From: a phage
Length of the DNA stretch: 64,000 nt
Sequence record: PZ452595.1
Reading direction: 5' to 3' (one strand)
The position numbers and the translations under genes were made by a program. The notes under the pieces are model-generated. The model was not told the origin of the DNA. It saw only the letters and a list, made by a program, of their open reading frames with translations, and did no database searches. Positions 4,401 to 42,808 of the stretch are shown in pieces (positions within the stretch are counted from its first letter, which is position 1; each line of letters begins with the position of its first letter).

Positions 4401-5808
<1,408 letters not shown>

Positions 5809-25530: not shown

Positions 25531-28500
25531 ATGGCTACTTTAAAACAAATACAATTTAAAAGAAGCAAAACTGCAGGAGCACGTCCTGCCGCTTCAGTAT
25601 TAGCCGAAGGTGAATTGGCTATAAACTTAAAAGACCGTGTACTTTTTACTAAAGATGACCAAGGAAATATTATTGATCTGGGTTTTGCTAAAGGCGGTAG
25701 TATTGACGGGAATGTTATTCATACAGGCAATTATAACCAAACTGGCGATTATACTTTAAATGGTGTCTTCACTCAGACTGGTAATTTTAATTTAACTGGT
25801 ATTGCTCGAGTAACTCGCGATATTATTGCCGCTGGGCAGATTATGACTGAAGGCGGAGAACTTATTACAAAAAGTTCAGGTACAGCGCATGTTCGTTTTT
25901 TCGATAACAATAGTCGCGAACGCGGAATCATTTATGCCCCGGCTAATGATGGTTTAACTACACAAGTACTTAATATCAGGGTTCAAGACTACGCCGCTGG
26001 TAGCGAAAGCACTTATGCATTTTCAGGCAGTGGACTATTTACTTCACCTGAAGTATCAGCATGGAAATCTATTTCGTCTCCACAAATTCTGACCGACAAA
26101 GTTATTACAAATGGGAAGAAGACGGGAGATTATGACATTTATTCTATGGCAGACAACGTTCCATTGTCTGAAAGCACTACTGCTATTAATCATCTCCGTG
26201 TTATGCGCAATGCTGTAGGCGCTGGTGTATTCCATGAAGTTAAAGATAATGATGGAATAACTTGGTATACTGGAGATGGCTTAGACACTTATCTTTGGTC
26301 GTTTACCTGGACCGGTGGATTGAAAGCAGGCCATTCTATTTCTGTTGGTACTCCTGGTGGCAATAAAGGATACTCTGAATTAGGGACTGCTTCAATTTCT
26401 CTTGGCGATAATGATACCGGGCTAAAATGGCATCAGGACGGATATTTCTATACAGTAAACAACGGAACAAGAACTTTCATCTATGGTCCAGGAGAAACGC
26501 AAAGCCTTAGAAAAATGGTTATGGCTTATTCTCCAGATGGGCTTCTTATGACAACGCCACCGACAGAAAACTATGCTTTGGCTACTGTTGTTACTTACCA
26601 TGATAATAACGCATACGGTGACGGTCAAACTCTTTTAGGATATTATCAAGGCGGTAACTATCATCATTATTTTCGCGGTAAGGGTACTACAAACATTAAT
26701 ACTCACGGCGGTTTGTTAGTTACTCCTGGTAATATTGACGTTATTGGTGGTTCTGTTAATATCGATGGTAGAAATAATGCTTCTACACTGATGTTTAGAG
26801 GTAACACAACTGGTAGTAGTTCAGTTGATAATATGACAATTTCCGTTTGGGGCAATACGTTTACTAATCCTAGTGTAGGTAATCGTAAAAACGTCATGGA
26901 AATTTCTGATGCAACTAGCTGGATGAGTTATATTCAAAGACTTACAACAGGTGAAGTAGAAATGAACGTTAACGGTTCATTTGAATCATCTGGTGTTACT
27001 GCTGGAAATAGAGGAGTTCACACAACGGGCGAAATTTCATCTGGGGCTGTGAATGCGCTTCGTATTTGGAACGCAGATTATGGAGCTATTTTTAGACGTT
27101 CAGAAGGTAGTCTTCATATTATTCCAACTGCTTATGGTGAAGGTAAACATGGTGATATCGGCCCACTTCGCCCGTTTAGTATGGCTTTAGATACCGGTAA
27201 AGTTACTATTCCAGATTTACAATCAAGTTACAATACGTTCGCAGCGAACGGCTATATTAAATTTGTTGGTCATGGAGCGGGTGCCGGCGGTTATGACATT
27301 CAATATGCTCAAGCGGCTCCTATTTTCCAGGAAATTGATGATGATGCTGTAAGCAAATATTATCCTATTGTTAAACAGAAGTTTTTAAATGGTAAAGCCG
27401 TTTGGTCTTTAGGTACTGAAATTAATTCGGGTACATTCGTTATTCATCATCTGAAAGAAGATGGATCACAGGGCCATACATCAAGATTTAATGCTGATGG
27501 TACAGTTAATTTCCCCGATAACGTTCAGGTCGGCGGCGGTGAAGCTACTATTGCTCGCAATGGTAATATTTTCTCAGATATTTGGAAATCGTTTACTTCT
27601 GCGGGAGACACTACAAATATTCGCGATGCGATAGCTACTCGTGTTGCCAAAGAAGGCGATACGATGACCGGTAGGTTGACTTTATCTGCTGGAAATGATG
27701 CCCTTGTTTTAACTGCGGGCGCTGGCGCTTCATCGCACATCCGTAGTGATGTAGGTGGTACAAATAATTGGTATATAGGCAAAGGCGGCGGCGACAATGG
27801 TCTAGGTTTTTACAGTTACATTACACAAGGCGGTGTATACATAACAAATAACGGCGAAATAGCGCTTTCTCCTCAAGGACAAGGAACATTTAATTTTAAT
27901 AGAGACCGCCTTCATATAAACGGTACACAATGGACTGCGCACCAGGGTGGTGGCTGGGGAAACCAATGGAATCAAGAAGCTCCGATATTTATAGATTTTG
28001 GTAATGTTGGTAATGATAGTTATTATCCTATTATTAAAGGAAAATCTGGTATTACTAATGAAGGATACATATCTGGCGTTGATTTTGGTATGCGACGCAT
28101 TACTAATAACTGGGCGCAAGGTATTATTCGTGTAGGTAACCAGGAAAATGGTTCTGATCCACAAGCTATCTATGAATTTCATCACAATGGAGTTCTGTAT
28201 GTTCCTAACATGGTTAAAACTGGAGCAAGATTATCAGCTGGCGGTGGTGACCCGGTGTGGCAAGGCGCATGCGTTGTTATTGGTGATAATGATACTGGAT
28301 TAGTTCATGGTGGTGATGGACGAATTAATATGGTTGCAAATGGAGTTCATATTGCTTCATGGTCTTCATCTTATCATTCTCATCCAGGCCTTTGGGATTC
28401 AAACGGAGCTTTGTGGACAGAAGTTGGCAAAGCAATTATTTCTCATGGTCATTTAGTTCAGGCGAATGACAGCTATTCAACGTTTGTCCGTGATGTTTAT

Positions 28501-28842
28501 GTCCGCTCTGATATTCGTGTTAAAAAAGACCTCGTTAAATTTGAAAATGCTTCTGAAAAGCTTTCTAAAATTAACGGTTACACTTATATGCAGAAACGTG
28601 GAACTGACGAAGAAGGTAATCAGAAATGGGAACCTAACGCCGGTTTAATTGCTCAAGAAGTTCAAGCTATTTTACCAGAATTAGTTGAAGGCGACCCGGA
28701 TGGTGAAGCTTTACTTCGTTTGAACTATAACGGTGTAATTGGTTTAAATACAGCTGCAATCAATGAGCATACTGCAGAAATTGCGGAACTTAAATCAGAA
28801 ATTGAAGAACTTAAAGCATTAGTTAAATCATTGTTAAAATAA
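25531..28842 (+). CDS. 37: long tail fiber distal subunit gp37 with C-terminal intramolecular chaperone module
   Basis: 1103 aa, AAGAGGA upstream; the C-terminal ~110 aa begin at an S|DIRVKKDL motif and end in a coiled-coil heptad segment. Confidence 0.95.
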
Positions 28843-28847
28843 TAAGA

Positions 28848-28861
28848 GGGGCTTCGGCCCC
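28848..28861 (+). promoter_or_regulatory. intercistronic hairpin between genes 37 and 38
   Basis: GGGGC-UUCG-GCCCC immediately followed by the gene 38 SD GGAGG; no U-run. Confidence 0.4.
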
Positions 28862-28873
28862 TTGGAGGTTTAT

Positions 28874-29650
28874 ATGGCAGTAACAGGACCGTGGGTAGGA
28901 TCGTCTGCAGTAGTTAATACAGGACAAAATTGGATGGGTGGTGCCGCGCAGAGATTGAGAATGGGAATTCCGTTTTGGATGAGTAATATGATAGGTCGAT
29001 CTGTTGAAATAATTCACACGCTTGGAGCAGACCATAACTTCAATGGTCAATGGTTCCGAGATAGATGTTTTGAGGCAGGTAGTGCACCTATAGTGTTTAA
29101 TATCACTGGAGATTTAGTATCATATTCTAAAGATGTTCCTTTATTCTTCATGTATGGAGATACACCCAATGAATATGTTCAGTTGAATATACACGGCGTA
29201 ACGATGTATGGTCGTGGCGGTAATGGCGGTAGCAATAGTCCTGGCTCAGCTGGAGGTCATTGTATTCAAAACGATATTGGTGGGAGACTAAGAATTAATA
29301 ATGGTGGAGCTATTGCAGGCGGCGGTGGCGGCGGTGGCGGCGGATATTATTCTCCTTTTTCACAAATGAGATTGACCTTTGGCGGCGGCGGTGGGCGTCC
29401 GTTTGGTGCACCTGGCGGATCTATTGATATGCAATCAGGAGCGACTGGCGGTACTATTTCTGCACCTGGCTCAGGATCCGTGAATGGTATCTATAATGGT
29501 GGAAACGGTGGTGAAGTAGGTTCCGCGGGAGGTAGATGCAATATTCGCGGTCAAGGATCTGAATATAATGGCGGCGATGCTGGTTATGCCGTCATAGGGT
29601 CCGCTCCAACGTGGATAAATGTTGGAGCAATATATGGTCCAAGAGTATAA
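28874..29650 (+). CDS. 38: gp38 receptor-binding adhesin, T2-type with polyglycine motifs
   Basis: ATG at 28874 with GGAGG 5 nt upstream (258 aa; the track frame adds 4 codons from a TTG); C-terminal half has Gly runs ([20 protein letters not shown]) separating short variable segments. Confidence 0.88.
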
Positions 29651-29680
29651 TTTGAATAAATATCCTTAAAAGGAGGGTCT

Positions 29681-30337
29681 ATGGCAGCACCTAGAATATC
29701 ATTTTCGCCCTCTGATATTCTGTTTGGTGTTCTAGATCGCTTGTTCAAAGATAACGCTACCGGGAAAGTTCTTGCTTCCCGGGTAGCTGTCGTAATTCTT
29801 TTATTTATGATGGCGATTGTTTGGTATAGGGGAGATAGTTTCTTTGAGTACTATAAGCAATCAAAGTATGAAACATACAGTGAAATTATTGAAAAGGAAA
29901 GAAATGCACGCTTTGAATCTGTCGCCCTGGAACAACTCCAGATAGTTCATATATCATCTGAGGCAGACTTTAGTGCGGTGTATTCTTTCCGCCCTAAAAA
30001 CTTAAACTATTTTGTTGATATTATAGCATATGAAGGAAAATTACCTTCAACAATAAGTGAAAAATCACTTGGAGGATATCCTGTTGATAAAACTATGGAT
30101 GAATATGCAGTTCATTTAAATGGACGTCATTATTATTCCAACTCAAAATTTGCTTTTTTACCAACTAAAAAGCCTACTCCCGAAATAAACTACATGTACA
30201 GTTGTCCATATTTTAATTTGGATAATATCTATGCTGGAACGATAACCATGTACTGGTATAGAAATGATCATATAAGTAATGACCGCCTTGAATCAATATG
30301 TGCTCAGGCGGCCAGAATATTAGGAAGGGCTAAATAA
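29681..30337 (+). CDS. t: holin T
   Basis: 218 aa, MAAPRISFSPSDILFGVLDRLFKD...; single N-terminal TM segment and large periplasmic domain; AAGGAGGG upstream; same length as T4 holin. Confidence 0.93.
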   Translation: MAAPRISFSPSDILFGVLDRLFKDNATGKVLASRVAVVILLFMMAIVWYRGDSFFEYYKQSKYETYSEIIEKERNARFESVALEQLQIVHISSEADFSAVYSFRPKNLNYFVDIIAYEGKLPSTISEKSLGGYPVDKTMDEYAVHLNGRHYYSNSKFAFLPTKKPTPEINYMYSCPYFNLDNIYAGTITMYWYRNDHISNDRLESICAQAARILGRAK

Positions 30338-30610
30338 TTATTTGTTCGTATACATCTCTAGATATCGATATACACCCTCAAAACCCTCGTTGAATTCGTC
30401 GATGAGGGTTTTCTTATCTTCCTGAGTTAATTCAGAAACAATTTTACGGAATGAATTCTGATTTAACTTTCTACCTTCATGCGTTACTCCAATCTCATTC
30501 AGAAATGCAATAAAATTAGCACGATTTTCAACAATATCTTCTCTGGAAAATTTAATCAAAATAGACGCAACAGTAATAATTTCACGAACTGTATCAATGT
30601 TTTTATTCAT
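30338..30610 (-). CDS. asiA: anti-sigma70 factor AsiA
   Basis: 90 aa, MNKNIDTVREIITVASILIKFSREDIVENRANFIAFLNEIG...; matches T4 AsiA; convergent with t. Confidence 0.95.
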   Translation of the reverse strand: MNKNIDTVREIITVASILIKFSREDIVENRANFIAFLNEIGVTHEGRKLNQNSFRKIVSELTQEDKKTLIDEFNEGFEGVYRYLEMYTNK

Positions 30611-30622
30611 TAACTATACCAC

Positions 30623-30775
30623 TCAATTAGTTGACTTTGTTATAATATCATCAGACGCTTGATTTGTAAACTGGTCTGTGTTATTTTCTTCAAAAATTTT
30701 TTCTACGAATTCCTTGAACGACTCACGTTCCTGAGCTACATTGTGCTCGATTACCTTTTCAAGATTATGACTCAT
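30623..30775 (-). CDS. small hypothetical protein (asiA.1 position), not in ORF track
   Basis: 50 aa hand-translated (MSHNLEKVIEHNVAQERESFKEF...); its ATG overlaps the arn stop codon (ATGA). Confidence 0.4.
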   Translation of the reverse strand: MSHNLEKVIEHNVAQERESFKEFVEKIFEENNTDQFTNQASDDIITKSTN

Positions 30776-31050
30776 TCGAAATAATCTTCAATTTCGTAAT
30801 CATGGACATAAATCATTATAGTTTTTAATACATCATCAATACTTTTTCCTGGAGCTGGAATTACGTAAAAATATCCTACTTTTGAGAGGTCTTTATAAGT
30901 TCCAATTAAGAAATCGTTATTCTCAAGATGTAGTTCTTCAACTAATTCATTGACAATTGAATGGTATAGATTTGGTAGAAACTTATATAGCTTTTCTAGA
31001 ATATCAATTTTGATTGTGTATTGAACCACGGATTGAGAATCAATAATCAT
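30772..31050 (-). CDS. arn: anti-restriction nuclease Arn (McrBC inhibitor)
   Basis: 92 aa, ATG start; length and position next to asiA match T4 arn. Confidence 0.85.
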   Translation of the reverse strand: MIIDSQSVVQYTIKIDILEKLYKFLPNLYHSIVNELVEELHLENNDFLIGTYKDLSKVGYFYVIPAPGKSIDDVLKTIMIYVHDYEIEDYFE

Positions 31051-31133
31051 AGACCTTCCCCTTATGTTTCTGTTTGCGATTAGATTCTTTAAACGCTTTC
31101 TTCTTATCCTTATGAACAGAAGCTTTATTAAAA

Positions 31134-31352
31134 TTATGTTTTGCGACTAAATTGTTCATAGTGCTGAATTACCTCTCTCAAACATTTGCATGTGAATGAA
31201 AACTTTTTAGCTACACCACATTCAAATATATGTTCTCTTAAATCACATGTATCGGTATATCCCATCTCAACAATAAAATGCCGTATTAGATTTTTATCTT
31301 TATCATTGAGAGAATTAAAATAATCAGATTTTGAATTAATTTCCCTGGCCAA
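31134..31352 (-). CDS. small Cys-rich hypothetical protein, start uncertain
   Basis: First ATG at 31265 gives 43 aa (…CDLREHIFECGVAKKFSFTCKCLRE…); the 72-aa track frame needs a TTG start. Confidence 0.3.
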   Translation of the reverse strand: MAREINSKSDYFNSLNDKDKNLIRHFIVEMGYTDTCDLREHIFECGVAKKFSFTCKCLREVIQHYEQFSRKT

Positions 31353-31632
31353 ATTGAATCACCTTCAGTTGACGTTTTAGTTCTTTTATCATCTCTTCGT
31401 TCATTGCAATATAAAGATCGCGTAGAGCAGGTTTTAGCATTCCATTTACCGGAGAACTAAATGGGCATACATAATCTTTTCCTACGAGCTTTTTAGTGAA
31501 TTCCATATCACAGAACTTAAATCCCGGCTCATTGGTATAAATTCCCCAATTGGTTGACATCATTTTATTAGCATATTCCAGTGCCTGGATTTGATTCATA
31601 ATTCCATCAATTTGAAACTTTTTAATATTCAT
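31336..31632 (-). CDS. hypothetical protein (arn.x block)
   Basis: 98 aa, ATG start. Confidence 0.5.
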   Translation of the reverse strand: MNIKKFQIDGIMNQIQALEYANKMMSTNWGIYTNEPGFKFCDMEFTKKLVGKDYVCPFSSPVNGMLKPALRDLYIAMNEEMIKELKRQLKVIQFGQGN

Positions 31633-32093
31633 TAGTAAAGGTCCTCAGAGTAAAGTTCTTTTTCACTACCACCACGTTCAATACGTACTTGTCCAGCGTA
31701 AGTTGCAATAATCATTGCTTCTTCACGTGTCCAATAATTACTATATTGGTCAATAAACCCTTGGTCATCATCACAAACTTGTTGAGTAACTAATTGAGGT
31801 TTAACTACATCTAAAACTTCTGCCATATCTTTAGAATAATGACGAGCACCTGGAATAATAAGAGTTCGTCCATCTTTTAATTTAAAACGGTTGGCTGCAC
31901 AAACAATTCGTCGTTGATACTTTTGGTTTTCATCCCAATACGCAGTCTGCCAACAGATTTCAGGAACTTCATCTAAAACATTTTGTTCTGTATATTCACC
32001 ACCGTAAGAAGCTAATTTAGCAGCCAGACTTTCCGGAGTCTCACGCGACAAAGCTTTATCTAACAGAGCTAAACGTTCTTTAAAAGTTTTCAT
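31632..32093 (-). CDS. hypothetical protein (arn.x block)
   Basis: 153 aa, ATG start, overlaps neighbours by 1-4 nt. Confidence 0.55.
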
Positions 32094-32419
32094 TTAAACC
32101 ATCCTTTAATACGTTGCCACAAAGTTTTCTGCTGAGCTTTGTTAACACCAATTGAGCGAATAACTGGTTGAGATTCCTGGAATTCTTTATAATCAGCAAG
32201 ATAAATTTCGTAAGCTGCATCCGTAAATGAACTTATCGCTGCCATAAAATTATTGCGAATACCTACTGGAGCATCTTTACTTTCACGAATAATCATGTAT
32301 TTACCAGTCTTAATCTTTACGATAGTTCCAAGATAAGCTCCATGATACCAGATGTCCCACCCCTCTTGAGTGGGTTCTGCGCAACGACGAAGTTCATTAA
32401 CAATTTCTAACTTGTTCAT
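32090..32419 (-). CDS. hypothetical protein (arn.x block)
   Basis: 109 aa, ATG start. Confidence 0.5.
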
Positions 32420-32429
32420 TATTTATTCC

Positions 32430-33065
32430 TCACAGTTCAGATGCTACAGTGATTACTGCTTCAATGTTTTCTGCCGAGCGTTTAATGTCAAGATACACAT
32501 TACCGTTTTTAGCGATTTTACATGACATTCCAATATCAGTAAATTTCTGAATATGATGTTCCATCATTTTGTATCCAAAAATTCGCATATTTCCATTGTT
32601 GTTAATTTCAAAATTACGAATTCCGTGAGTACGTTTTTCTAAAATAGCGAGATAGTTACTACGATAAGTTTCAACCTTTTTAAGAACAAATCCATTTTCA
32701 TCTAAAAGTTTTAACATGAAGTCTTTATCTTCTTCCATATCGGAAGTAATTTCGCGAGCTTTACGAGTTGCTCGTTTTTTCAGCAGTTCCGGAGCATTTT
32801 CTTGTGCGTATAAAGTTGCTGCATTTGAAATAATATCCTGAGCTTCGCCTGTAATGATTAATCCATCACCAGATTTCTCTACCAGGCCTTTTTTAATCAA
32901 TACCCCAATATTACTATTAACTACTGCGTTACCTAAATCTGGATGCACTTCACGAACTTCTGCAGCTGTAATGAAATCTTTCTTAGCAATAGTAATTAAA
33001 ATCGCAGCAGTTTTTTCATTCAGAACATCGTTAGAAGCTTTGATGATGTAAGTTACTTTAGACAT
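32430..33065 (-). CDS. motA: MotA middle-transcription activator
   Basis: 211 aa, MSKVTYIIKASNDVLNEKTAAILITIAKK...; length and position next to gene 52 match T4 MotA. Confidence 0.92.
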   Translation of the reverse strand: MSKVTYIIKASNDVLNEKTAAILITIAKKDFITAAEVREVHPDLGNAVVNSNIGVLIKKGLVEKSGDGLIITGEAQDIISNAATLYAQENAPELLKKRATRKAREITSDMEEDKDFMLKLLDENGFVLKKVETYRSNYLAILEKRTHGIRNFEINNNGNMRIFGYKMMEHHIQKFTDIGMSCKIAKNGNVYLDIKRSAENIEAVITVASEL

Positions 33066-33106
33066 TTTCTAATCTCCGTAATTCTGTATCAGTAGTTGAT
33101 AGTTGT

Positions 33107-33135
33107 ATAGTACCACAGTATGCTTTGGTTGTAAA
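33107..33135 (-). promoter_or_regulatory. T4-type early promoter upstream of motA
   Basis: Minus sense GTTTACA, 17-nt spacer, TGG-TACTAT, followed by the conserved CAACTACTGATAC leader. Confidence 0.6.
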
Positions 33136-33161
33136 CCGTTTTGTGAAAAATTTTTGAAATA

Positions 33162-33187
33162 AAAAAGGGAGAGCCGAGGCTCTCCCT
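33162..33187 (-). terminator. rho-independent terminator downstream of the 52 / motA.1 unit
   Basis: Stem GGGAGAGC / GCTCTCCC with 4-nt loop, then U-run in minus sense. Confidence 0.6.
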
Positions 33188-33191
33188 AAAA

Positions 33192-33341
33192 TTACTGCTC
33201 GAACGCGATAACTATCGTGATAACACGTTGAATTCCGAACGCAAGAAGACCTCCTGCTACGGCTGGAACAACGCCTAAACCCGCCAGTAAAATGCTACCG
33301 GATACTAATGCAGCGCTTGTAATACCAATGAATGGACTCAT
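33192..33341 (-). CDS. small membrane protein (motA.1 position), not in ORF track
   Basis: 49 aa hand-translated (MSPFIGITSAALVSGSILLAGLGVVPAVAGG...), hydrophobic; ATG overlaps the gene 52 stop (ATGA). Confidence 0.45.
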   Translation of the reverse strand: MSPFIGITSAALVSGSILLAGLGVVPAVAGGLLAFGIQRVITIVIAFEQ

Positions 33342-34666
33342 TTGATTTCCTCTAAATCTTTAGTGTATTCAGTAACTACATCAGTAGTTTTCCAATATTC
33401 ATTTTCTTCTTTTTTAGCTTTAGCTTCTTCAGCAAGTTTCTTTGCTTCATCGGAAGTCATATGAAAAATATTCATTCCAACTAGTTTATCAACATAAGAA
33501 GAATACATATCGATTTTCGAAAGTTCTTCGGTCAGTTCTTTACGAGTTTTACCCTGCACAACAATTTCACCTGAAATTACTTTCTTAATGAAATGTGCCT
33601 TGGCAAAGGCTAAACGAAAAGCTGACTCAGTTTCTTTAATTTTGTTATCAATTCGTTTTTGGACATAAGTTTTACGAACTTCAACGAAGTCTTTAATTAA
33701 ATCAACCACGTTATCGTAAACTTGTAGTTTTCCTTTCTCATTAATAACCGTAATATTCTGAGAACGACGCTCAATCAACCCGAAGTCTTTCATAATTTTT
33801 GCATGGCGTTCTTCTTCGTTATCGCTCAAAGAGTATTCTTTGCGGAATTTAACTTTGAAGCCAAAACCATGCTCACCACAAGCATCATCCCATGTAATGA
33901 AGCCTTTATCTTCAAGTGGGTCTAAGATTTTACTCACGTAAGTTTCACGATCATACTTATACGGAATCTCAGTGATATGCATTTGAGTTCGTGAAGTAAA
34001 CTTATATGTTCCACGAATTTCATATTGCCCATCAATTTCAACGACTTCACCACGAAATTCTGGGAATTCTACCTTCGGTTTAGTTACTTTCTTTCCTTGA
34101 AGAGCTTGTAGTACAGCTTTCTTGACAGAAGAAACACTATGAGGAAGAATGTAAGTTGCATAACCAGTTGCAATACCGGAAACGCCATTAAGAAGAACAG
34201 TAGGAATAATAGGCAAATAGAAAGCAGGCGGAATGTGTTCTTTATCTTGATGTACTGGAGCATATTCAGTATCTTTATATACGTTATAGAAATTTTTACT
34301 TACACGAGCAAAAATATAACGACTTGCCGCTGCCTTTTGGACAGTACGAGAACCGAAGTTTCCTTGACCATCTAACAGAGGAAAGTTATTATTCCAAGTG
34401 TTAGCCATCAAAGCTCCCGCATCTTGCGCAGAGTTTTCGCCATGGTGATATCCAAGGTCCGCTACACCACCTGCAATAGAAGCGAGTTTGTGAAACTTAT
34501 CTTTATTTCCTCGTGCCAAATCAAGAGCTCGAGCAATAACAAATCGTTGAACTGGCTTAAATCCATCAATCATATTTGGAATGGCACGATTTTCAACCGT
34601 GTACATAGCATAAGCCAATGCTTCATTATCAATGATACTTTTTAAATCGCGATTATTCAGTTGCAT
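33338..34666 (-). CDS. 52: topoisomerase II medium subunit gp52
   Basis: 442 aa, ATG start; GyrA-like N-terminal region; same length as T4 gp52. Confidence 0.95.
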   Translation of the reverse strand: MQLNNRDLKSIIDNEALAYAMYTVENRAIPNMIDGFKPVQRFVIARALDLARGNKDKFHKLASIAGGVADLGYHHGENSAQDAGALMANTWNNNFPLLDGQGNFGSRTVQKAAASRYIFARVSKNFYNVYKDTEYAPVHQDKEHIPPAFYLPIIPTVLLNGVSGIATGYATYILPHSVSSVKKAVLQALQGKKVTKPKVEFPEFRGEVVEIDGQYEIRGTYKFTSRTQMHITEIPYKYDRETYVSKILDPLEDKGFITWDDACGEHGFGFKVKFRKEYSLSDNEEERHAKIMKDFGLIERRSQNITVINEKGKLQVYDNVVDLIKDFVEVRKTYVQKRIDNKIKETESAFRLAFAKAHFIKKVISGEIVVQGKTRKELTEELSKIDMYSSYVDKLVGMNIFHMTSDEAKKLAEEAKAKKEENEYWKTTDVVTEYTKDLEEIK

Positions 34667-34670
34667 AAAT

Positions 34671-34811
34671 TTACCATACTAGTGAATGTAGTGCCATAAT
34701 AACATCAGAAATGAAAAGCACGACTTGAATTAATCCGAACATTACTCCATAATATAGTGCTACCAATAAAGTAGCAAGGGCTAATGAATAGCCCAAGATT
34801 TTCTTAATCAT
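34671..34811 (-). CDS. small membrane peptide upstream of gene 52, not in ORF track
   Basis: 46 aa hand-translated (MIKKILGYSLALATLLVALYYGVMFGLIQVVLF...), two hydrophobic segments. Confidence 0.4.
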   Translation of the reverse strand: MIKKILGYSLALATLLVALYYGVMFGLIQVVLFISDVIMALHSLVW

Positions 34812-34971
34812 TAGTAGATAACAACACAAATGTTAAATATGCACACATACCCTGGGCTAAAGCTTGTGAAAACACACTGCTAGCATCGATCAGATAGTTA
34901 AAACACATGCTACTATCCAACAAATAAATGAAATAACTCCTAATAATTTTGCGATATTCATAATATTCTCC

Positions 34972-35127
34972 TCAACTATTTTTAGAACCAATGTACGCGA
35001 ATAATGATAAAATCGCTAATACGCCCTGAGCTGATGCTTGTAAAAATACTGAAGTTTCTCCAGTTATTACTGTTCCGATGCATAAAAAGAACCAACAGAA
35101 AAAGGCTATACCGTGAACAAATTTCAT
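34972..35127 (-). CDS. small membrane peptide, not in ORF track
   Basis: 51 aa hand-translated (MKFVHGIAFFCWFFLCIGTVITGETSVFLQ...); GAGGA 6-8 nt upstream of ATG. Confidence 0.4.
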   Translation of the reverse strand: MKFVHGIAFFCWFFLCIGTVITGETSVFLQASAQGVLAILSLFAYIGSKNS

Positions 35128-35214
35128 ATTTTCCTCACTGGCGTCCGAAGACGCCTTTGGTTTTAAGATTGTTACGATAGAACTGCATCACATGTTCGTT
35201 ATGGAAATTACTCA

Positions 35215-35658
35215 TTAATATGCCTGCAAAACAAATTTAAAGTTATCAGCCAACATACGGTTCATTTCTTCAAGTGTTTGATACTCAGAATGATGATTAC
35301 GAGTAAACGCCAAAGCTAACTGACCTTTTCCAAATCCCGTCGTCAGAGGTTTCATCTTAGAAGCAGGCAGATAAAACACTGCGTATACCATATTGTTATT
35401 TGCAATAGTACGCGCAAGTTGAGACCGGCGTTGACGAATATGACTTAGAACTGCACTGAATCCTTGCTTAGAACGCTGATTACCTACATAAAATCGTGCA
35501 GATACGCATGAACCATCGAATTCACTTACTAAAAAGTAAAATCCAGGTTTAGACAAAATGTCTTTATGCGGAGTTCCCAAAAACCATTCACCACCCTTGA
35601 TTGTACCAATAACAGTAGCGCCTGCATCATTCAGATCAGTAACAGTCATATATTTCAT
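35215..35658 (-). CDS. ndd: nucleoid disruption protein Ndd
   Basis: ATG at 35658 preceded by GAGGA gives [28 protein letters not shown]... (147 aa); track start is upstream non-ATG. Confidence 0.75.
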
Positions 35659-35718
35659 ATTAATTTCCTCTAAATTATTTTCTACTCCAAGGCCGCATGA
35701 ATACACACGGCCATTAAA

Positions 35719-35934
35719 TTAATCGTCGCAGTCGACGCTCAATTCCCAAAACTCTTCTACAGTATAAGTTTCAGTATCATTTTCAATACAGAAACGTTCA
35801 TTACTATTATTTTCTAAAGTAGCGTTAACTGTCATTTTCTCGCTAGTGCTCTTAAGAGGTGAAATACGAATTAACTGATCACCGTTATCTAAACAAAAAA
35901 TTTCACCAACTTTTACATCTTTAAAGATTTTCAT
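35719..35934 (-). CDS. hypothetical protein
   Basis: 71 aa, ATG start. Confidence 0.5.
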   Translation of the reverse strand: MKIFKDVKVGEIFCLDNGDQLIRISPLKSTSEKMTVNATLENNSNERFCIENDTETYTVEEFWELSVDCDD

Positions 35935-36049
35935 AATTCACCTCAGGGAGTATAAAATCCAAACGCAGTTGTTGACCATCCCATCCAATACGGAAAATTT
36001 GCACCAATGTAAAACATAAGAATATAAAACCAACCGCTCAGCAAATTCA

Positions 36050-36247
36050 TCATTTTACACCGTTCCAAATTGTTTCAACCACAGATTTTAAACCATTTTG
36101 ATGAATATCAATTCCGACTACTGTCATCAAATAGATTCCAACTACAACTGAACCTAAGGCAAAAATCAGCATGAAAATGAATAAAGCCGGAAAAATATTA
36201 TCGAAAAACCATTCAATAAATGTAAAAGCACTGCGTTTACGCTTCAT
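36050..36247 (-). CDS. small membrane protein
   Basis: ATG at 36247 preceded by GAGGA (65 aa); one long hydrophobic segment. Confidence 0.45.
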   Translation of the reverse strand: MKRKRSAFTFIEWFFDNIFPALFIFMLIFALGSVVVGIYLMTVVGIDIHQNGLKSVVETIWNGVK

Positions 36248-36254
36248 ATTTTCC

Positions 36255-36368
36255 TCACATAAATCCAAAGTAAACGTTTAATACATCAATCATTAAAACG
36301 ATTGGGAATATACTCAAAACTATTAGTATTATAACTACATTCCATATAGCTTTAACAATCTTTTTCAT
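36255..36368 (-). CDS. small membrane peptide
   Basis: ATG at 36368 preceded by GGAGG (37 aa, MKKIVKAIWNVVIILIVLSIFPIVL...); track frame extends through the promoter. Confidence 0.4.
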   Translation of the reverse strand: MKKIVKAIWNVVIILIVLSIFPIVLMIDVLNVYFGFM

Positions 36369-36396
36369 TTTCTGTTCCTCCGTAGTTGATAGGGTA

Positions 36397-36425
36397 ATAG
36401 TACCACGGAAGAACAGTCTTGTAAA
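36397..36425 (-). promoter_or_regulatory. T4-type early promoter
   Basis: Minus sense GTTTACA, 17-nt spacer, TGG-TACTAT; leader CTATCAACTACGGAGGAACAGAAA-ATG nearly identical to the one at 63208..63231. Confidence 0.55.
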
Positions 36426-36684
36426 CAACTTTTTAAAAATATTCGTAATAAATGTGAATACCAACTACTACCGCTGAAACTTGCACAACCCACCACGCAC
36501 AAGCAATAAGTACAGAATTCAAAATTTTCATAATAACCTCATTACAAAAGTAAATGTTAAACAAATTACTGGAATACTAATTAACCAAACAAAACACCAC
36601 CACAGTGAACTCATAGTTCAATCTCAGCGATTTTCATTTTATTCTCCAAATCCGTATCAGTAGTTGTCAGTAGTTGATAGTTGT

Positions 36685-36713
36685 ATAGTACCACGGTCCT
36701 TGTGGTATGTAAA
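36685..36713 (-). promoter_or_regulatory. T4-type early promoter downstream of denB
   Basis: Minus sense GTTTACA, 17-nt spacer, TGG-TACTAT; tandem duplication of CAGTAGTTG in the leader. Confidence 0.5.
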
Positions 36714-36729
36714 CCATTTTGTGAAATTT

Positions 36730-37287
36730 TTAAATGGAAAGATACCATCCGTTGTAGTTGCTTTTTCTTACAACCTTACGAAGGTCTTCTCTATCACCGA
36801 TGAACTTCGGAGTGTACTGGATGACACCTGGATGAATTTCTTTAGTGTTGAATATAATTATACAGTCAGCGACTTGATGATTTAGAATGGGCCCTAGATT
36901 TATTCCAGAACCGTATGGATACTCTCCGCTGCATCCTGTTGTTACAGAAATCCAACGTGAGTCAGTTTGATGTGTCTTAACTTCTACACGAAGCCCGCAG
37001 TATTTTGGATGCGCCAATACATCCCATGCATATGTGTACGGATCATCGACATCTTCTTGGCCTTTATTGACATATCCGCTTAGCCAATCTGCCACAAAAA
37101 ACTCTGCGTACACAGCGATACGGCATCTTTCGATAACTTCTGCCTTATCCTGATTTGGGTTCTGTTTTAAAGAGTATCTTGCAGTATCAGCAATTTTGAC
37201 CTTCATTTCACTAGTCAAGTCACTGTTCGATAGGGTAAATGTCGGAATCTGAAACAGTCTCTGTAAACCCGGATTCGTTTTCTGCAT
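36730..37287 (-). CDS. denB: endonuclease IV
   Basis: 185 aa, ATG start; same length and position (between rIIB and ndd) as T4 denB. Confidence 0.8.
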   Translation of the reverse strand: MQKTNPGLQRLFQIPTFTLSNSDLTSEMKVKIADTARYSLKQNPNQDKAEVIERCRIAVYAEFFVADWLSGYVNKGQEDVDDPYTYAWDVLAHPKYCGLRVEVKTHQTDSRWISVTTGCSGEYPYGSGINLGPILNHQVADCIIIFNTKEIHPGVIQYTPKFIGDREDLRKVVRKSNYNGWYLSI

Positions 37288-37344
37288 TTAAACTTTCCTT
37301 TTATGTCGGAATCACCGATATTCATATAAATCATAATTTCTCTT

Positions 37345-37366
37345 AAAACAAAAGGGCCGAAGCCCC
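37345..37366 (-). terminator. rho-independent terminator
   Basis: GGGC-UUCG-GCCC stem-loop followed by UUUUGUUUU in minus sense, between the 64-aa ORF and denB. Confidence 0.5.
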
Positions 37367-37371
37367 TTATT

Positions 37372-37566
37372 TTACTTGAATTGTGCAATTCTTTTCTCTA
37401 GACATTCAGCATAAGATTTCATTGAGATAAACTGCGAAAGTAACAGTTCTTGCTCAACTGCATTAACTGTTAGAAACTTTGCGCTTTCTAAAAATTTGCT
37501 CAGTGCATTAATTTTGAGCATTAATTGATCGTATTCTTCTTTTACTCGTGCTTGATAACCTAACAT
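37372..37566 (-). CDS. hypothetical coiled-coil protein (denB.1 position)
   Basis: 64 aa, ATG start preceded by AAGGAAAA. Confidence 0.5.
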   Translation of the reverse strand: MLGYQARVKEEYDQLMLKINALSKFLESAKFLTVNAVEQELLLSQFISMKSYAECLEKRIAQFK

Positions 37567-37594
37567 AATTTTCCTTAGTTAAGGGCCGAAGCCC

Positions 37595-38533
37595 TTATTT
37601 AAATTGTTCAGTAACGTCTTCAACTACTTCGTATTGGCAGGTACGCATTTTAGCATCGTTGTAATCAATCGGAATTGATACTACATCGCGAGGATGAACT
37701 TTAACTTTTACAACTCGGCTGGTTGAACTGCCAAAGTGACGAATATAAGATTTAGAACACACATGCAGACCACGAGAACAAGTTTGTGTATCATCGTCAT
37801 TCACACGAGTACGTGGCATTTTAACTACTTTACCCGGACTGTTATCAAAGGTATTTGAGTGACAGTCAAAGTAATTGCTACGAACTACTTTCCAAGCATA
37901 GAAGTAACCATCTTCTGTAATTTCAATATCGTTTGCTACCAAGAAATCAAAGAGTCGAGATACCGCTTTTTGGCTTGGGTTTTCCAGCAGATTTTCCAAG
38001 AACGGAAAATAAAATTCAAAGTTTTCGCCTTTTTCCATCGAGTCAAGAATACGATCAACCAAACCAGACCGCAATTCAATATTTTGATAGAACAAGCTTC
38101 CACCTTCAATTCGAACATCGCCGGAAATATATTTTTCAACAGCGCGACGAACATTAATTTTTTGTGCCGCTTCTTCCAACTTATCCGCTACAAGCAGATT
38201 AAGAATTTCCTGGAAGTTTGAATGAGTATTAGGAGTTGCATTATAAGTTACACCGTCAACAGTAATTGAAATGAATTTTTTAGATGCATTCCAAATAATG
38301 TCAGATTTAGCAACTGGAGCAATAACTGCATCGCTATTAACTTTAACTGTAATATCACCGCTAATAGTAACTTTAGGGCGTTTAGCTTCTTCAGCATTTT
38401 TCAAAACACGACGGATTGTGTCAACCGATACACCTTGCCAATCAGCCAATTCCTGTTGGGTGTAATTACCACTTGAATACAGTTTAACAATTTCAGCTTG
38501 TTCGTTTTTGGTCAGGCATTTAATATTGTACAT
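37595..38533 (-). CDS. rIIB: rIIB membrane-associated protein
   Basis: 312 aa, ATG start; same length as T4 rIIB; directly downstream of rIIA. Confidence 0.92.
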   Translation of the reverse strand: MYNIKCLTKNEQAEIVKLYSSGNYTQQELADWQGVSVDTIRRVLKNAEEAKRPKVTISGDITVKVNSDAVIAPVAKSDIIWNASKKFISITVDGVTYNATPNTHSNFQEILNLLVADKLEEAAQKINVRRAVEKYISGDVRIEGGSLFYQNIELRSGLVDRILDSMEKGENFEFYFPFLENLLENPSQKAVSRLFDFLVANDIEITEDGYFYAWKVVRSNYFDCHSNTFDNSPGKVVKMPRTRVNDDDTQTCSRGLHVCSKSYIRHFGSSTSRVVKVKVHPRDVVSIPIDYNDAKMRTCQYEVVEDVTEQFK

Positions 38534-38544
38534 AATTTTCCTTA

Positions 38545-40722
38545 TTAGGCCGCAAGGGCCTTCATAGTTTTAGCGATTTGGGAAACTTCATCATCACTTA
38601 AAGAGTTGCGATAACTGATGAAGTCGGAAACAATACGGAATTTCTTGGTAAACTCAGCAACCATTTTATCACTGTTTTTTGAAGCATTATTTGATAATAC
38701 ATCAAAAAGATTAGTTACTGTCCAGATGTCATGACCGATGGTATCTTTTCCACCATTAAAATATACACCCTGTAATGAACTAACCATATTAGCGAGTCGT
38801 GTATATTCTTCAGAAACTTCATCTACACTGAAGTACTTCATCATAAAATCTAACTCAGGATACTTGATAATTTTATCAATATATCGTTTAGCTGAACTTG
38901 AATAACCTACATACTTATCATAATCTACATCATCAAAAGCATCTACATATAAATCACGCAAAGCTTCAAAAATACATTGGCACTGACCGAGTTCTTTTAC
39001 CTTTTTCTGTAAAAGCGGACGAATAACATAAAATTCATTAATGCCAATAAGATTAGCCATACGAATCAAAATATTCATAGATGGATGACAAAGAGATGTA
39101 GTACCATCCATAGAGAAAATATCAGAACGATGCATATACGCTACATAACCAGTAATTTCATCTGCTTCTGACGTAAGTGTAAATAGTTCCTCTTTTTCCC
39201 AGCGCCCGTCTTTAATTTCAAACTTAAATGCTGTAGCAGCTTTAGGACGAGGAGCTTTACTTTTAACTACCTTTGGAATATAGCTTTTAACTAAAGCTTC
39301 AATTTCTGACAAATAATGAATGTTAACTTCATCACTTTCAAACATCGCCATAATATCAGGAAGTAAATCAATCTGCGATTCTACTTCTGGGTTAATAAAC
39401 AGAAGGCGTTCGTTATGATGAATATTTAAAGTGTTATTAAATTCACTATCATCTAACGCATGTGCTAATCCACGGACAATATTAACACGATTTTTAATAT
39501 CATCAATAACGATATTAATTTTTGTTGTATTAATACCAAACAGACGATAGCTTGATGCAACGGCTGAAGTTTCATGGCTTTGCTTAATACGTTTCAGCCG
39601 AGGGTCAAGATTTACTTCATACACAACTCCTGCATTGCATAACTTACTATCAGGTTCAAACATGCTCTGCATCTTTTTATATGACAGATTTTTAGTCGTG
39701 AATTTGACTGAATTACTAATCATATAATCTCGAGCAGAATACCCCATCTTCATCAATTCACGATATGTATGACGAGGAGATGTAGATTCTTTAAATCGTT
39801 TTACATCTTCATTAAATGCTTTCTCACTGAGTTCTTTAACTCGTTCAATAATATTTTTACGAGTACGATCATCCAGTGAAAGAGCCTCGCGAGATGGAGC
39901 AATATCAAGTGAACCCATTGGAAACTTAATGTAATTCACTTCATTGCGAATGCTTAGCCAGTTACGGTCTCTAATAACACCATCGATAGGATAAACAATA
40001 CCGCCGTAGATAGCATACAATCCACCACGATCAGGCCAGTATCTTTCTGGATTTACGCCGTAATAATCATCGAAATCCGGAAAATAATCAATTTCGCGGT
40101 CAAGACCATTAATGATAGCCAAATCTTTGAACGGTCGCATGATATAAGAAACTTCATAAGCAAAGTTTCTAAAGTCTTTTTCTTCAACTGGAACTACGAT
40201 TTCAATACCAGTTTTATCATCTGGACCCATTTCTTTTACGAATGTAGGTTTAATCTGTGGACCATCACCATCCATGTAAGCTACATAACCACGAATTTCA
40301 CCTTTATGATAAGAAGTAATACTAAACGTATCAGTATAACTAAACGGAGATTTAGAACCTAAACCAAATCCGCCAATAAAGTCATTAGATTCAGCTTTAG
40401 ATGAACTGAAGTATGAATTATACAACCCAGGAGAATTATCATCACCTTGAATATCAAAATCACTCATACCCGGACCAAAATCTCGACAAACAAATCGTGG
40501 GTCTAAACGTCCAGGAACTTGTATGATAAATTTCTCTGGATTTCCATTAAGTGCATGAGCATCAATCATGTTAGTAATCAATTCACGGACTACTGCGCGA
40601 ATCTTGTTTGTATATAAATCAGATGACAGAATTTTAAATACTTTAGGAGATGCTGTGATGCTAAATGCTTTTGATTTAGAACCATTGCCAAGAATTGTTT
40701 CTTTTTCAGTGGTGATAATCAT
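38545..40722 (-). CDS. rIIA: rIIA protein
   Basis: 725 aa, ATG start; same length as T4 rIIA; GHKL-ATPase-like N-terminal region. Confidence 0.94.
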
Positions 40723-40732
40723 AATTTCCTCA

Positions 40733-40936
40733 TTAATTCATATTACGCTTAATAACTTCAGCAACTTCTAGTAGTTCATCTTTAGTTGCGGTGTCGGATT
40801 GAATTTTATCTCTAATATCTTTAAAGCGGTTTTTAAATTCTTCGGCTTCTCCCATATCGAAAAAGCGTTGAATGATTCTATATTCTCGATGAACTGCTTT
40901 ATCAAAAAGTTCTAAATTTACTTTATATGATTTCAT
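40733..40936 (-). CDS. hypothetical protein (rIIA.1 position)
   Basis: 67 aa, ATG start; early promoter 40962..40990 upstream. Confidence 0.55.
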
Positions 40937-40961
40937 TTCAATATCCTCATTTGCCCAATTA

Positions 40962-40990
40962 ATTATACCACATCCTTGTGGTAAAGTAAA
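40962..40990 (-). promoter_or_regulatory. T4-type early promoter for the rIIA.1-rIIA-rIIB unit
   Basis: Minus sense GTTTACT, 17-nt spacer, TGG-TATAAT. Confidence 0.6.
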
Positions 40991-42808
40991 CTATTGGCTC
41001 ATCCATTCTTTACGAAGGTCAGCATTATCTCCCATGAGCATTTCAAAAAGCTCTTTCCAGTTCTCAGGAAGTTTAACAACATCATATACTGGGTTTTGAA
41101 TCATCTCACGATATTCAGATTTTTCCAAAGAGCCAAGTCCTTTAATATAACGGATGCTATGTTTAGGTAAAGCATCTTTAGCACTCTCATATTCAGCGAC
41201 TGTATAAAACCATTCTTGTTTTTTACCGACCTGAGCGATGATTACAGGAGTTTTGACGAAGCGAATTCGTCCTTGCTCAAACAATTCTGGCCAATTACTA
41301 AAAAATCCAAGCAGAGAAGGATAAATGCTTCCTAGACCATCATGGTCAGCATCAGTCATAATAGCAATATTATGATAATTCAAGTTTTCAGCTTTTTCAC
41401 CGAGAACTAATCCAGTGATTGCGCAAATATCAAATAGTTCTTTGTTTTTAAGCATATCTGCATAAGACATACCCCAGCTATTAAGAACTTTACCACGCAA
41501 TGGATAACCACCGTGAAGTTCTTTATCACGAACATCAATAAGATATCCGATAGCAGAATCACCCTCAGTCAAGAAAAGAGTAGTGTCAGCATCTTTACCA
41601 CAAAGATTCGCTTTGATATGTTTATGAACCTTAGCTTTAGAAGCCTTTTTAGCTGCTTTAGTTTCTGCTGCTTTTTCTGCCGCCAATTTACGAGCCAAAG
41701 CAGCTTCAATAATCGGCATTAGAATTGCTTCATTATTTAGAATAGCACGTGAAATCTTTTTAGCATCAAGCTGAATATGACTACGGATTTCACCAAATGG
41801 AGAAGTCAAACGCTCTTTAGTTTGAGAATCAAATCGCATGTTTTTCATATCACGAACAAACATAACGATTGTCAAACATTCTTTTACACGCGCTTTAGTT
41901 ACATCAATTTTGAACTTACGTTTGATTTGTGGAATAAGGTCTTCACAAATATCATCCATAACACAGTCAATGTGATGGCCACCATTCTTAGTGTGAATGT
42001 TATTGACGTATGTTAATTGACGAAAACCATCCGGTGAACGACCAACCGCAATAGAACAATTTTCTTGTTCTTGAACGATAGCATGCTCATCATATTGGCG
42101 TGCATATTTCTTAAAATTGCCCTGAACCTTTTTACCATTAAAGGTAAATTGAATATCAGGATAAACTACTGCAAGTGTCTGGAGACGATCTAGTGTAATG
42201 TCAAGATAAACTTGGGACAGCTCATTAGTTTCAAATGACATAAAATCAGGAATGAAAGTAACACGAGTTCCTTTCCATTTTCCAGGAATATCTTCCCATG
42301 ATTTATTTTCCATGCCATTTGAACAACGAACTACAATATTATTTTGACCATCACCAGTTTCACCGACAAACATCACAGAAAAAATGTTTGTCAAACTAGA
42401 ACCAACACCATTCATACCACCGGTGACGCGTTCTTTATCATCACCGAAGTTACCACCTGCTTTTGGAATAGTCCATGCAGCAACAGGACCAGGAATTTCT
42501 TCACCGGTAGGTGTTTTAACCATCGCTTGTGGAATACCACGACCGTTATCTTCAACTGTTACTTGATTGTTTTTAATAGTAACATTAATTTTATTTGCGA
42601 ATTTAAACTTAGTACGAATACCTTCATCTACTGAGTTATCGATAATTTCATCAATAAGCTTAACAAGACCAGGTACATACTGAACACTTTCCCATTTACC
42701 AAACAGAAAGCGCTCATGCATTTCATTAGCAGAAGAGCCGATGTACATGCCACTGCGCTTTTTGATATGTTCAATATCGCTCAGAATTTTAATTTCATTC
42801 TTAATCAT
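40991..42808 (-). CDS. 39: topoisomerase II large subunit, unsplit (39 + 60 in one frame)
   Basis: ATG at 42808 (605 aa); GHKL ATPase motifs (EIIDNSVDE, GRGIP) and Toprim region (…IAIMTDADHDG…) in one continuous frame; no gene 60 gap. Confidence 0.93.
   Translation of the reverse strand: MIKNEIKILSDIEHIKKRSGMYIGSSANEMHERFLFGKWESVQYVPGLVKLIDEIIDNSVDEGIRTKFKFANKINVTIKNNQVTVEDNGRGIPQAMVKTPTGEEIPGPVAAWTIPKAGGNFGDDKERVTGGMNGVGSSLTNIFSVMFVGETGDGQNNIVVRCSNGMENKSWEDIPGKWKGTRVTFIPDFMSFETNELSQVYLDITLDRLQTLAVVYPDIQFTFNGKKVQGNFKKYARQYDEHAIVQEQENCSIAVGRSPDGFRQLTYVNNIHTKNGGHHIDCVMDDICEDLIPQIKRKFKIDVTKARVKECLTIVMFVRDMKNMRFDSQTKERLTSPFGEIRSHIQLDAKKISRAILNNEAILMPIIEAALARKLAAEKAAETKAAKKASKAKVHKHIKANLCGKDADTTLFLTEGDSAIGYLIDVRDKELHGGYPLRGKVLNSWGMSYADMLKNKELFDICAITGLVLGEKAENLNYHNIAIMTDADHDGLGSIYPSLLGFFSNWPELFEQGRIRFVKTPVIIAQVGKKQEWFYTVAEYESAKDALPKHSIRYIKGLGSLEKSEYREMIQNPVYDVVKLPENWKELFEMLMGDNADLRKEWMSQ

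Follow-up and report, generated by a model that had tools for sequence, protein, structure and literature searches.

A T4-type early-gene block with a frameshifted ac beside an intact second ac type in a Tequatrovirus genome

Introduction

What kind of genes fill the interval between gene 52 and denB in the phage of sequence record PZ452595.1? The DNA analyzed here, a stretch of 64,000 nucleotides (hereafter the window), belongs to a Tequatrovirus (T4-like phage): it is about 96–97% identical to the best database records, and an identity of 95–97% links it to hundreds of Tequatrovirus genomes. T4 is the best-studied phage, and six or seven of its conserved early membrane peptides are still functionally unassigned. 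Mapping the region cleanly in this phage is of practical value, and it brings two corrections to an earlier, sequence-only reading: the phage does encode Stp, and the T4 interval is not the longer of the two.

Organization of the interval

On the minus strand, the genes follow the order 52.1, ac, stp, ndd, ndd.1, ndd.2, ndd.2a/ndd.3, ndd.4, ndd.5 and ndd.6. The ORFs were found where the earlier reading had placed them. The T4 annotation and its translations (T4p265–T4p275, NC_000866) align one to one with the window ORFs. Order, strand, overlaps and promoters are those of T4 and the proteins are 93–100% identical. The interval had rightly been placed between gene 52 and denB in a phage of the T-even group. 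In addition, PHROG profiles are matched by all ten mini-proteins tested (E 1e-17 to 1e-38), and three of them (52.1, Stp and Ndd.2a/3) score above the Pfam gathering threshold. Ndd.1, Ndd.2, Ndd.4, Ndd.5 and Ndd.6, which are 96–100% identical to T4, are assigned by full-length PHROG profile matches together with the T4 gene order.

We are confident that the phage carries here its own version of the non-essential T4 early-gene block 52.1-ac-stp-ndd-ndd.1..ndd.6, with the topoisomerase gene 52 on one side and denB on the other. The small hydrophobic ORFs are genuine, conserved and already known genes: they are 52.1, ac, stp and ndd.1–ndd.6, long annotated in T4, and the finding is therefore ordinary, save for a private frameshift in ac. 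The cluster had been presented as something unusual, but each ORF has an annotated T4 ortholog and falls in an existing PHROG or Pfam family.

Furthermore, the interval had been described as shorter than the T4 region. In fact the gap between 52 and rIIB spans 2928 nt, 168 nt more than the 2760 nt of T4, and from 52 to denB the excess is 165 nt, because a second ac copy of the RB32/RB69 type (B-type) is present and essentially accounts for it. Compared with T4, the window has an extra B-type ac, a frameshifted T4-type ac and an intact 65-aa form of ndd.3/ndd.2a. A length that differs from T4, an ORF absent from T4 and a 65-aa ORF not annotated as such in T4 could suggest a lineage-specific novelty, i.e. 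a rearranged or shortened ac-stp-ndd region in which new mini-genes replace T4 content. We consider this highly unlikely. The additional 165 nt are explained by a gene which 57 other phage records carry at full length, the 65-aa ORF is the common form from which T4 departs by a 1-nt deletion, and every other ORF is 93–100% identical to its T4 counterpart, with Stp in place. The stp-acB-acA-52.1 arrangement and the 65-aa Ndd.2a/3 are found, as in the window, in Aplg8, ADUt, Sf22, ECML-134 and others. In these tandem-ac Tequatrovirus genomes the mini-proteins are identical or nearly identical to those of the window, whereas their T4-type ac is intact.

Hydrophobicity and expression signals

Hydrophobicity was examined by the Kyte-Doolittle method in 19-residue windows with a threshold of 1.6 or more. 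Transmembrane (TM)-like segments occur in seven ORFs: two each in 52.1 and the ac paralog, and one each in the ac fragment, the 65-aa ORF, ndd.4, ndd.5 and ndd.6. On the same scale ndd.2 is moderately hydrophobic, while stp, ndd and ndd.1 are not hydrophobic. The impression of an interval packed with very small, mostly membrane-type ORFs holds.

A strong Shine-Dalgarno (SD) sequence is found ahead of ac, the ac paralog, ndd, ndd.1, the 65-aa ORF, ndd.4 and ndd.5. No good SD stands before the remaining genes, 52.1, stp, ndd.2 and ndd.6; each of these has a start codon that overlaps the preceding ORF's stop codon, a geometry of translational coupling. Two early-promoter-like sites, each with TTTACA, a 17-nt spacer, TACTAT and an upstream TG, lie on the minus strand upstream of ndd.4 (36397..36425) and between denB and ndd.6 (36685..36713); the latter is identical in T4. 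The T4 transcripts of all block genes are classed 'early' (PMC9697503 Table S2).

Coding evidence and selection

Are the smallest frames translated at all? They might be chance open frames in an AT-rich, T-skewed non-coding spacer made of untranslated regions, promoters and RNA structure. A T-rich coding strand alone yields hydrophobic codons, promoter-like sites and a stable hairpin do occur in the region, and T4 proteomics detected no peptide from the hydrophobic ORFs. Patterns of substitution speak for genes instead. Pooled pN/pS amounts to 0.12 for the annotated frame vs 1.13 and 1.97 for the shifted ones, third-position variation predominates, and per-gene values of 0.06–0.15 point to purifying selection on the mini-ORFs. 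Orthologs recovered by blastn are all intact ORFs (13–22 sequences per gene; for stp, 14 of 19), under an ungapped full-length criterion which itself leaves out frameshifted copies such as the split ndd.2a/ndd.3 of T4. For ndd.4, only four sites vary among close relatives and all four changes are non-synonymous, so that its selection signal rests on conservation in distant lineages.

In more distant T4-like lineages, where Ndd is 46–65% identical, orthologs of 52.1, stp, ndd.1, ndd.2, ndd.2a/3, ndd.4 and ndd.6 were found, and amino-acid conservation is still 40–60% in lineages too diverged for their DNA to align. The ORFs had rightly been read as real genes. Start/stop overlaps and SDs are ordered along the block, ac and stp are backed by genetics, and an Rfam scan of positions 33000–38600 (E up to 1) gave no match inside the interval. 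Taken against these observations, chance frames have a negligible probability, and we retain the reading of the ORFs as T4 genes. At the protein level, a T4 proteome study detected Ndd and Ndd.1, the latter as an early protein, and listed 52.1, Ac, Stp, Ndd.2, 2a, 3, 4, 5 and 6 as 'not detected' (PMC9697503 Table S2). This is expected because the peptides are tiny and hydrophobic; still, it is an absence. A search of the literature for small T4 proteins studied by ribosome profiling found no relevant paper. As a separate observation, the Rfam scan returned two far-sub-threshold matches, only near the motA terminator.

The stp gene

The 26-aa Stp frame had been missed. It is present at 35135..35215 on the minus strand, encodes a soluble peptide 100% identical to T4 Stp, and has an ATG which overlaps the ndd stop codon (TAATG). 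It belongs to PHROG 6763 and matches Pfam PF08133 Nuclease_act over positions 1–26 of 26 (75.3 bits, cut-off 25). Stp is an inhibitor of the type Ic restriction enzyme EcoprrI and in this way unleashes the PrrC anticodon nuclease (PMC1484252; T4 annotation). Given the sequence identity to T4 Stp, the same EcoprrI/PrrC activity in prr+ hosts is very likely. The 3′ end of stp carries a GGCGUC-UUCG-GACGCC tetraloop hairpin (35140..35155, minus strand), shortly before the next gene's SD, with a fold of -12.2 kcal/mol (z = -2.5).

The ndd genes

The nucleoid disruption gene ndd (35215..35658, minus strand) encodes a protein of 147 aa, 93% identical to T4 Ndd and 4 aa shorter because of a 15-nt in-frame deletion, as seen in an alignment with ADUt, RB14 and Aplg8. 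Upstream of it lies ndd.1 (35719..35934; like all genes of this section, on the minus strand), which specifies an acidic, soluble protein of 71 aa with 96% identity to T4 Ndd.1 (PHROG 2183, E 1e-37; pN/pS 0.12). The aromatic-rich, hydrophobic Ndd.2 (35943..36053; 36 aa, or 35 from the second Met) is 97% identical to its T4 counterpart (PHROG 4135, E 2e-24; pN/pS 0.10), and the ndd.2 start shares nucleotides with the stop codon of the 65-aa ORF.

This 65-aa ORF (36050..36247) is intact and corresponds to T4 ndd.3 plus ndd.2a. Alignment with T4, RB14 and ADUt shows that a 1-nt deletion separates the two in the T4 reference, which makes T4 the exception: the window holds the intact ancestral form, which is also the common one. 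The protein matches Pfam DUF7248 over residues 6–63 (68.1 bits, cut-off 27) and PHROG 2401; its frame is intact in 13 of 13 ungapped orthologs, with a pN/pS of 0.08.

Three single-TM-helix proteins complete the series. Ndd.4 (36255..36368; 37 aa, strong SD) is 98% identical to T4 Ndd.4, belongs to PHROG 3098 (E 3e-21) and retains 61% identity in several more distant T4-like lineages. Ndd.5 (36433..36531; 32 aa) shows 97% identity to T4 (PHROG 5011, E 2e-25; pN/pS 0.06), and Ndd.6 (36528..36614; 28 aa) shows 100% (PHROG 8851, E 2e-17; pN/pS 0.12).

The two ac copies and 52.1

Two types of ac, the acridine sensitivity gene, stand in tandem in the window, and the B-type (RB32/RB69-type) copy is the only intact one. 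The T4-type ac (34804..34961, minus strand) is disrupted: the T of the Cys24 codon TGT is lost between 34891 and 34890, which gives ATC TGA and a stop at codon 24. A 23-aa ORF (34890–34961) is thus the 5′ fragment, and the remaining codons lie in another frame. The deletion was placed by alignment with T4, Aplg8, ADUt, RB14 and RB18, and the two halves match T4 Ac in different frames. Once repaired, the protein matches PHROG 2501 over profile positions 1–50 of 50 (E 3.7e-25). None of 450 phage records shares the 1-nt deletion, and its site is not within a homopolymer. The frameshift could be a sequencing error. General sequencing sloppiness was considered as its source and set aside: among about 58 T4 genes with an ortholog in window positions 1–38533, only ac is split. 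The map would record a natural or laboratory ac-null allele next to an intact second ac type.

The B-type copy (34972..35127, minus strand; 51 aa) has two hydrophobic helices and a strong SD. It matches PHROG 2501 over the same 50 of 50 profile positions (E 4.9e-26), and its sequence is the same (100% identity) as that of the second 'acridine resistance protein' in Aplg8 and ADUt. This type is absent from T4. In RB32 and wV7 it is the sole ac and directly overlaps 52.1, whereas here it lies upstream of the decayed T4-type copy. The intact Ac has the TGETSVFLQASAQGVLA core in common with RB32/wV7 Ac and the motif TGETxVFxQAxxQG in common with Mosigvirus Ac.

The adjacent 52.1 (34671..34811, minus strand; 46 aa, two hydrophobic helices) is 98% identical to T4 gp52.1 and matches Pfam DUF7396 (81.9 bits, cut-off 27) and PHROG 3595 (E 1e-25). 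Its pN/pS is 0.15 over 22 orthologs, and its identity is 27–93% in most more distant T4-like loci, a few of which have no match. The gene stands immediately upstream of gene 52, its stop codon 4 nt before the gene 52 ATG. Translation of 52.1 may be reduced in this phage, because it has no SD and its ATG normally overlaps the stop codon of an intact ac, which is now frameshifted.

Functional considerations

Loss of ac function in T4 leads to acriflavine-resistant phage growth (bioRxiv 10.1101/2025.06.30.662393), and Ac renders infected or expressing cells acriflavine-sensitive (bioRxiv 10.1101/2025.06.30.662393; PMC13250531). The AcrAB-TolC pump has been put forward as the Ac target, as a preprint proposal and not a demonstration (bioRxiv 10.1101/2025.06.30.662393). 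Ndd disrupts the nucleoid, as described in the literature. Deletion of the whole block in sa-delta-9 leaves T4 viable with about 50% yield and abolishes the phage-induced stimulation of phosphatidylglycerol synthesis (PMC6071114), a mapped phenotype which is still without a gene.

The mini-proteins are likely early, small inner-membrane effectors. In the proposed mechanism, the hydrophobic peptides 52.1, Ac, Ndd.2, Ndd.2a/3, Ndd.4, Ndd.5 and Ndd.6 would insert into the inner membrane during the first minutes of infection and, as small proteins, modulate host membrane machines there. Ac would probably block drug efflux, and one or more of the other hydrophobic peptides would probably underlie the lipid-synthesis phenotype. 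For all peptides but Ac we infer this mode of action; for Ac, the efflux pump as target is the preprint's proposal. The bacterial AcrZ is a small inner-membrane regulator which binds AcrB. Regulators of the AcrZ type and the phage peptides both comprise about 30–65 aa and one or two TM helices, an analogy of size and TM count.

A more specific picture is tentative, and we regard it as possible rather than probable: a putative battery of small phage proteins of the inner membrane, in which every member has its own host membrane machine as target, the two Ac types are alternative or redundant efflux-pump inhibitors and one of 52.1, Ndd.2, Ndd.2a/3, Ndd.4, Ndd.5 and Ndd.6 is the long-sought phosphatidylglycerol-stimulation factor. 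Alternative or redundant Ac types would explain why a phage can lose one copy.

The same peptides could serve superinfection exclusion or lysis timing (Imm/Sp/holin-like) and not act on host transporters or lipid synthesis. Being early, directed to the membrane and not needed under laboratory conditions, they would fit an accessory role in competition or on particular hosts, and the neighboring rIIA and rIIB are membrane-associated, lysis-related genes. However, PHROG and Pfam scans gave no link to exclusion or lysis families, the sa-delta-9 literature found reports no exclusion phenotype, and mapping has linked the block to no phenotypes other than acridine sensitivity, PrrC activation, nucleoid disruption and phosphatidylglycerol stimulation. 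We therefore judge a role in exclusion or lysis improbable and favor modulators of host membrane machines.

The denB-proximal end of the block

The end of the block next to denB shows some minor features. Between ndd.6 and denB, many tandem-ac genomes have one or two additional ORFs that are absent in the window and in T4. An ORF of eight codons (MKIAEIEL; 36611..36637, minus strand) with a GGAG SD has a stop codon overlapping the ndd.6 ATG, and may provide translational coupling into ndd.6. It is kept in T4 and ECP52, and in two IMG/VR loci a longer ORF ends with it; probably, it is a remnant of a longer gene seen in RB14-type genomes. Matches to ndd.5, ndd.6 and the promoter in records of 47 kb and 38 kb looked suggestive of transfer to unrelated phages, a lead which was dropped: one record is fragmentary and classified as Tequatrovirus, and the other, a 38-kb contig that is unverified and unannotated, has a taxonomy of only 'Viruses' and an 88-nt match. 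Lastly, the leader upstream of ndd.6 carries a 10-nt tandem duplication here, unlike in T4.

Gene content of the 52-denB interval

Hundreds of Tequatrovirus (T4-like) genomes match positions 34300-37400 and 30000-42000 at 95-97% identity by megablast, with no identical genome among these matches. The surrounding genes all lie on the minus strand: motA, motA.1, gene 52 (33338-34666), the interval under study (34671-36611), denB (36730-37287), denB.1, rIIB and rIIA. Read 5′ to 3′ on this strand, the interval comprises an 8-codon ORF, ndd.6 (28 aa), ndd.5 (32 aa), ndd.4 (37 aa), a 65-aa ORF (36050-36247), ndd.2 (36 aa), ndd.1 (71 aa), ndd (147 aa, 35215-35658), stp (26 aa, 35135-35215), a 51-aa ac-family ORF (34972-35127), a 23-aa ORF which is the 5′ remainder of a frameshifted T4-type ac (34804-34961), and 52.1 (46 aa). 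The ORFs listed by an earlier sequence-only reading are all found where it placed them.

The T4 reference annotation of the same interval holds 52.1, ac, stp, ndd, ndd.1, ndd.2, ndd.2a, ndd.3, ndd.4, ndd.5 and ndd.6. With the exception of ac, each translated T4 protein gave one full-length match in the window at 93-100% identity. Existing PHROG families were matched by all ten mini-proteins (E 1e-17 to 1e-38), and the Pfam gathering score was passed by 52.1 (DUF7396), Stp (PF08133, anticodon nuclease activator) and the 65-aa ORF (DUF7248). These matches identify the cluster as the ordinary T4 gene complement; it is already known, and its presentation as something unusual is not supported. Stp, which the sequence-only reading had failed to find, is present and identical to T4 Stp. 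Specialist interest is limited to three points: the frameshift in ac, the presence of two ac types in tandem, and an unassigned lipid phenotype.

Nor is the 52-rIIB interval shorter than in T4, as had been thought: it measures 2928 nt here and 2760 nt in T4, and the 52-denB gap 2063 versus 1898 nt, because there is essentially one extra gene, the second ac copy. In the T4 reference a G is missing from codon 2 of the 65-aa ORF, hence its separate annotation of ndd.3 and ndd.2a; the uninterrupted 65-aa frame is the usual form.

Conservation and selection

Ungapped orthologues were taken from 13-22 related loci, comprising INPHARED records and IMG/VR contigs found via Ndd. The ORF was intact in all orthologues recovered for 52.1, ndd.1, ndd.2, the 65-aa ORF, ndd.4, ndd.5 and ndd.6, recovery being defined by an ungapped full-length match that excludes frameshifted copies from this count. 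Among these orthologues, mini-gene variation falls mostly at third codon positions (pN/pS 0.06-0.15), and the pooled pN/pS of eight small genes is 0.12 in the annotated frame versus 1.13 and 1.97 in the shifted frames. The exception among close relatives is ndd.4, where the four sites that vary are all non-synonymous, yet in several lineages further away its protein keeps 61% identity.

At loci where Ndd is 46-65% identical, tblastn identities are 27-93% for 52.1, 80-100% for stp, about 51% for ndd.1, 34-49% for ndd.2, 28-51% for the 65-aa ORF, 31-61% for ndd.4 and 40-59% for ndd.6; at this sensitivity, ndd.5 and T4-type ac are apparently confined to Tequatrovirus. A lack of conservation among relatives would have counted against the sequence-only reading; the mini-ORFs are conserved, most of them with matches persisting in distant T4-like loci. 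Within the block, ndd is conserved least, its protein being 90-94% identical to close relatives. Compared with phages ADUt, RB14 and Aplg8, this gene has an in-frame deletion of 15 nt (GRPFSNP to GS region).

Tandem ac types and the ac frameshift

The 51-aa ORF is an ac of the RB32/RB69 type (core TGETSVFLQASAQGVLA) and is full-length in 57 phage records. Its product matches the second ‘acridine resistance protein’ of Aplg8 and ADUt at 100% identity. In RB32 and wV7 this type is the sole ac. The neighbouring T4-type ac has lost a T of the Cys24 codon TGT, giving ATC TGA and thus the 23-aa ORF counted by the sequence-only reading. This 1-nt deletion is absent from all 450 records matching the 70-nt stretch around it, the best of which are 98.6% identical (71 nt in the record versus 70 nt in the query). 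Among about 58 genes compared, ac is the only one split across frames. Translation of 52.1 may be reduced by the frameshift, since this gene lacks an SD and overlaps the stop codon at which ac normally ends.

The frameshift site (34890-34895, minus) reads AUC UGA UCG, that is AUC-UG-AUC, so that the new stop has the same Ile codon on either side; this follows simply from the ATC TGT ATC of the undeleted gene. As pure speculation, a ribosome making a short hop from one AUC to the next would return to the original frame, and the resulting Ac would lack only Cys24.

Hydrophobicity and translation signals

In Kyte-Doolittle windows, seven interval ORFs show one or two hydrophobic segments of TM length, the ndd.2 product is moderately hydrophobic, and those of stp, ndd and ndd.1 are soluble. 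Strong SDs precede seven interval ORFs. The starts of 52.1, stp, ndd.2 and ndd.6 lie inside or against the upstream stop codon (ATGATTAA, TAATG, ATGA), an arrangement suggestive of translational coupling. Both ndd.4 and ndd.6 are preceded by an early-type promoter-like site (TTTACA, 17-nt spacer, TACTAT, TG upstream); the one before ndd.6 is identical in T4.

The 8-codon ORF MKIAEIEL (36611-36637, minus) has a GGAG SD, ends in an ATGA overlapping the ndd.6 start codon, and is conserved in T4 and phage ECP52. It looks like a remnant now coupling translation into ndd.6, because in two T4-like loci from IMG/VR these codons form the end of a longer ORF extending upstream, and RB14 is annotated with an 87-aa gene at this position. 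The leader between the promoter-like site and ndd.6 contains a 10-nt tandem duplication (CAACTACTGA twice; 36657-36676, minus) that T4 and ECP52 lack. The junction between ndd.6 and denB is a hot spot for indels (for example 2962-3437 of the ADUt locus and 4171-4646 of the RB14 locus): in many Tequatrovirus genomes it contains one or two additional ORFs (87 and 68 aa) absent from this phage and T4.

Within the last stp codons, a GGCGUC-UUCG-GACGCC tetraloop hairpin (35140-35155, -12.2 kcal/mol) lies directly upstream of the next gene's SD and may act as an mRNA stabiliser or processing barrier.

Expression and function

In a T4 time course (PMC9697503, Table S2), transcripts of 52.1, ac, stp, ndd.2, ndd.2a, ndd.3, ndd.4, ndd.5 and ndd.6 are ‘early’ and their proteins ‘NA’ (undetected), while Ndd and Ndd.1 are early as both transcript and protein. 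The sa-delta-9 deletion spans exactly 52.1, ac, stp, ndd, ndd.1-ndd.6 and denB (reviewed in PMC6071114); the mutant is viable, with about half the yield, and loses the stimulation of phosphatidylglycerol synthesis. Several proteins of this region are thought to be membrane-located (PMC6071114). Taken together, hydrophobicity, timing and deletion phenotype suggest that the uncharacterised peptides act at the inner membrane early in infection, as modulators of the host's membrane machines.

T4 without ac grows on acriflavine, and Ac expression sensitises E. coli (2025 preprint, bioRxiv 10.1101/2025.06.30.662393); a block of AcrAB-TolC by Ac was proposed there and repeated in a 2026 paper (PMC13250531). 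According to PMC1484252 and the T4 annotation, Stp is the T4 inhibitor of EcoprrI which activates PrrC.

Other regions that differ from T4

Outside the interval, differences from T4 were located at about 8900-10100, about 17450-17550 and 25531-29680. The T4 mobile-endonuclease genes mobE and segG, as well as nrdB.1, have no match in the window. T4 gp38 likewise has no match in the window and gp37 is only 35% identical to T4, which together point to a putative non-T4-type distal tail fibre and adhesin.
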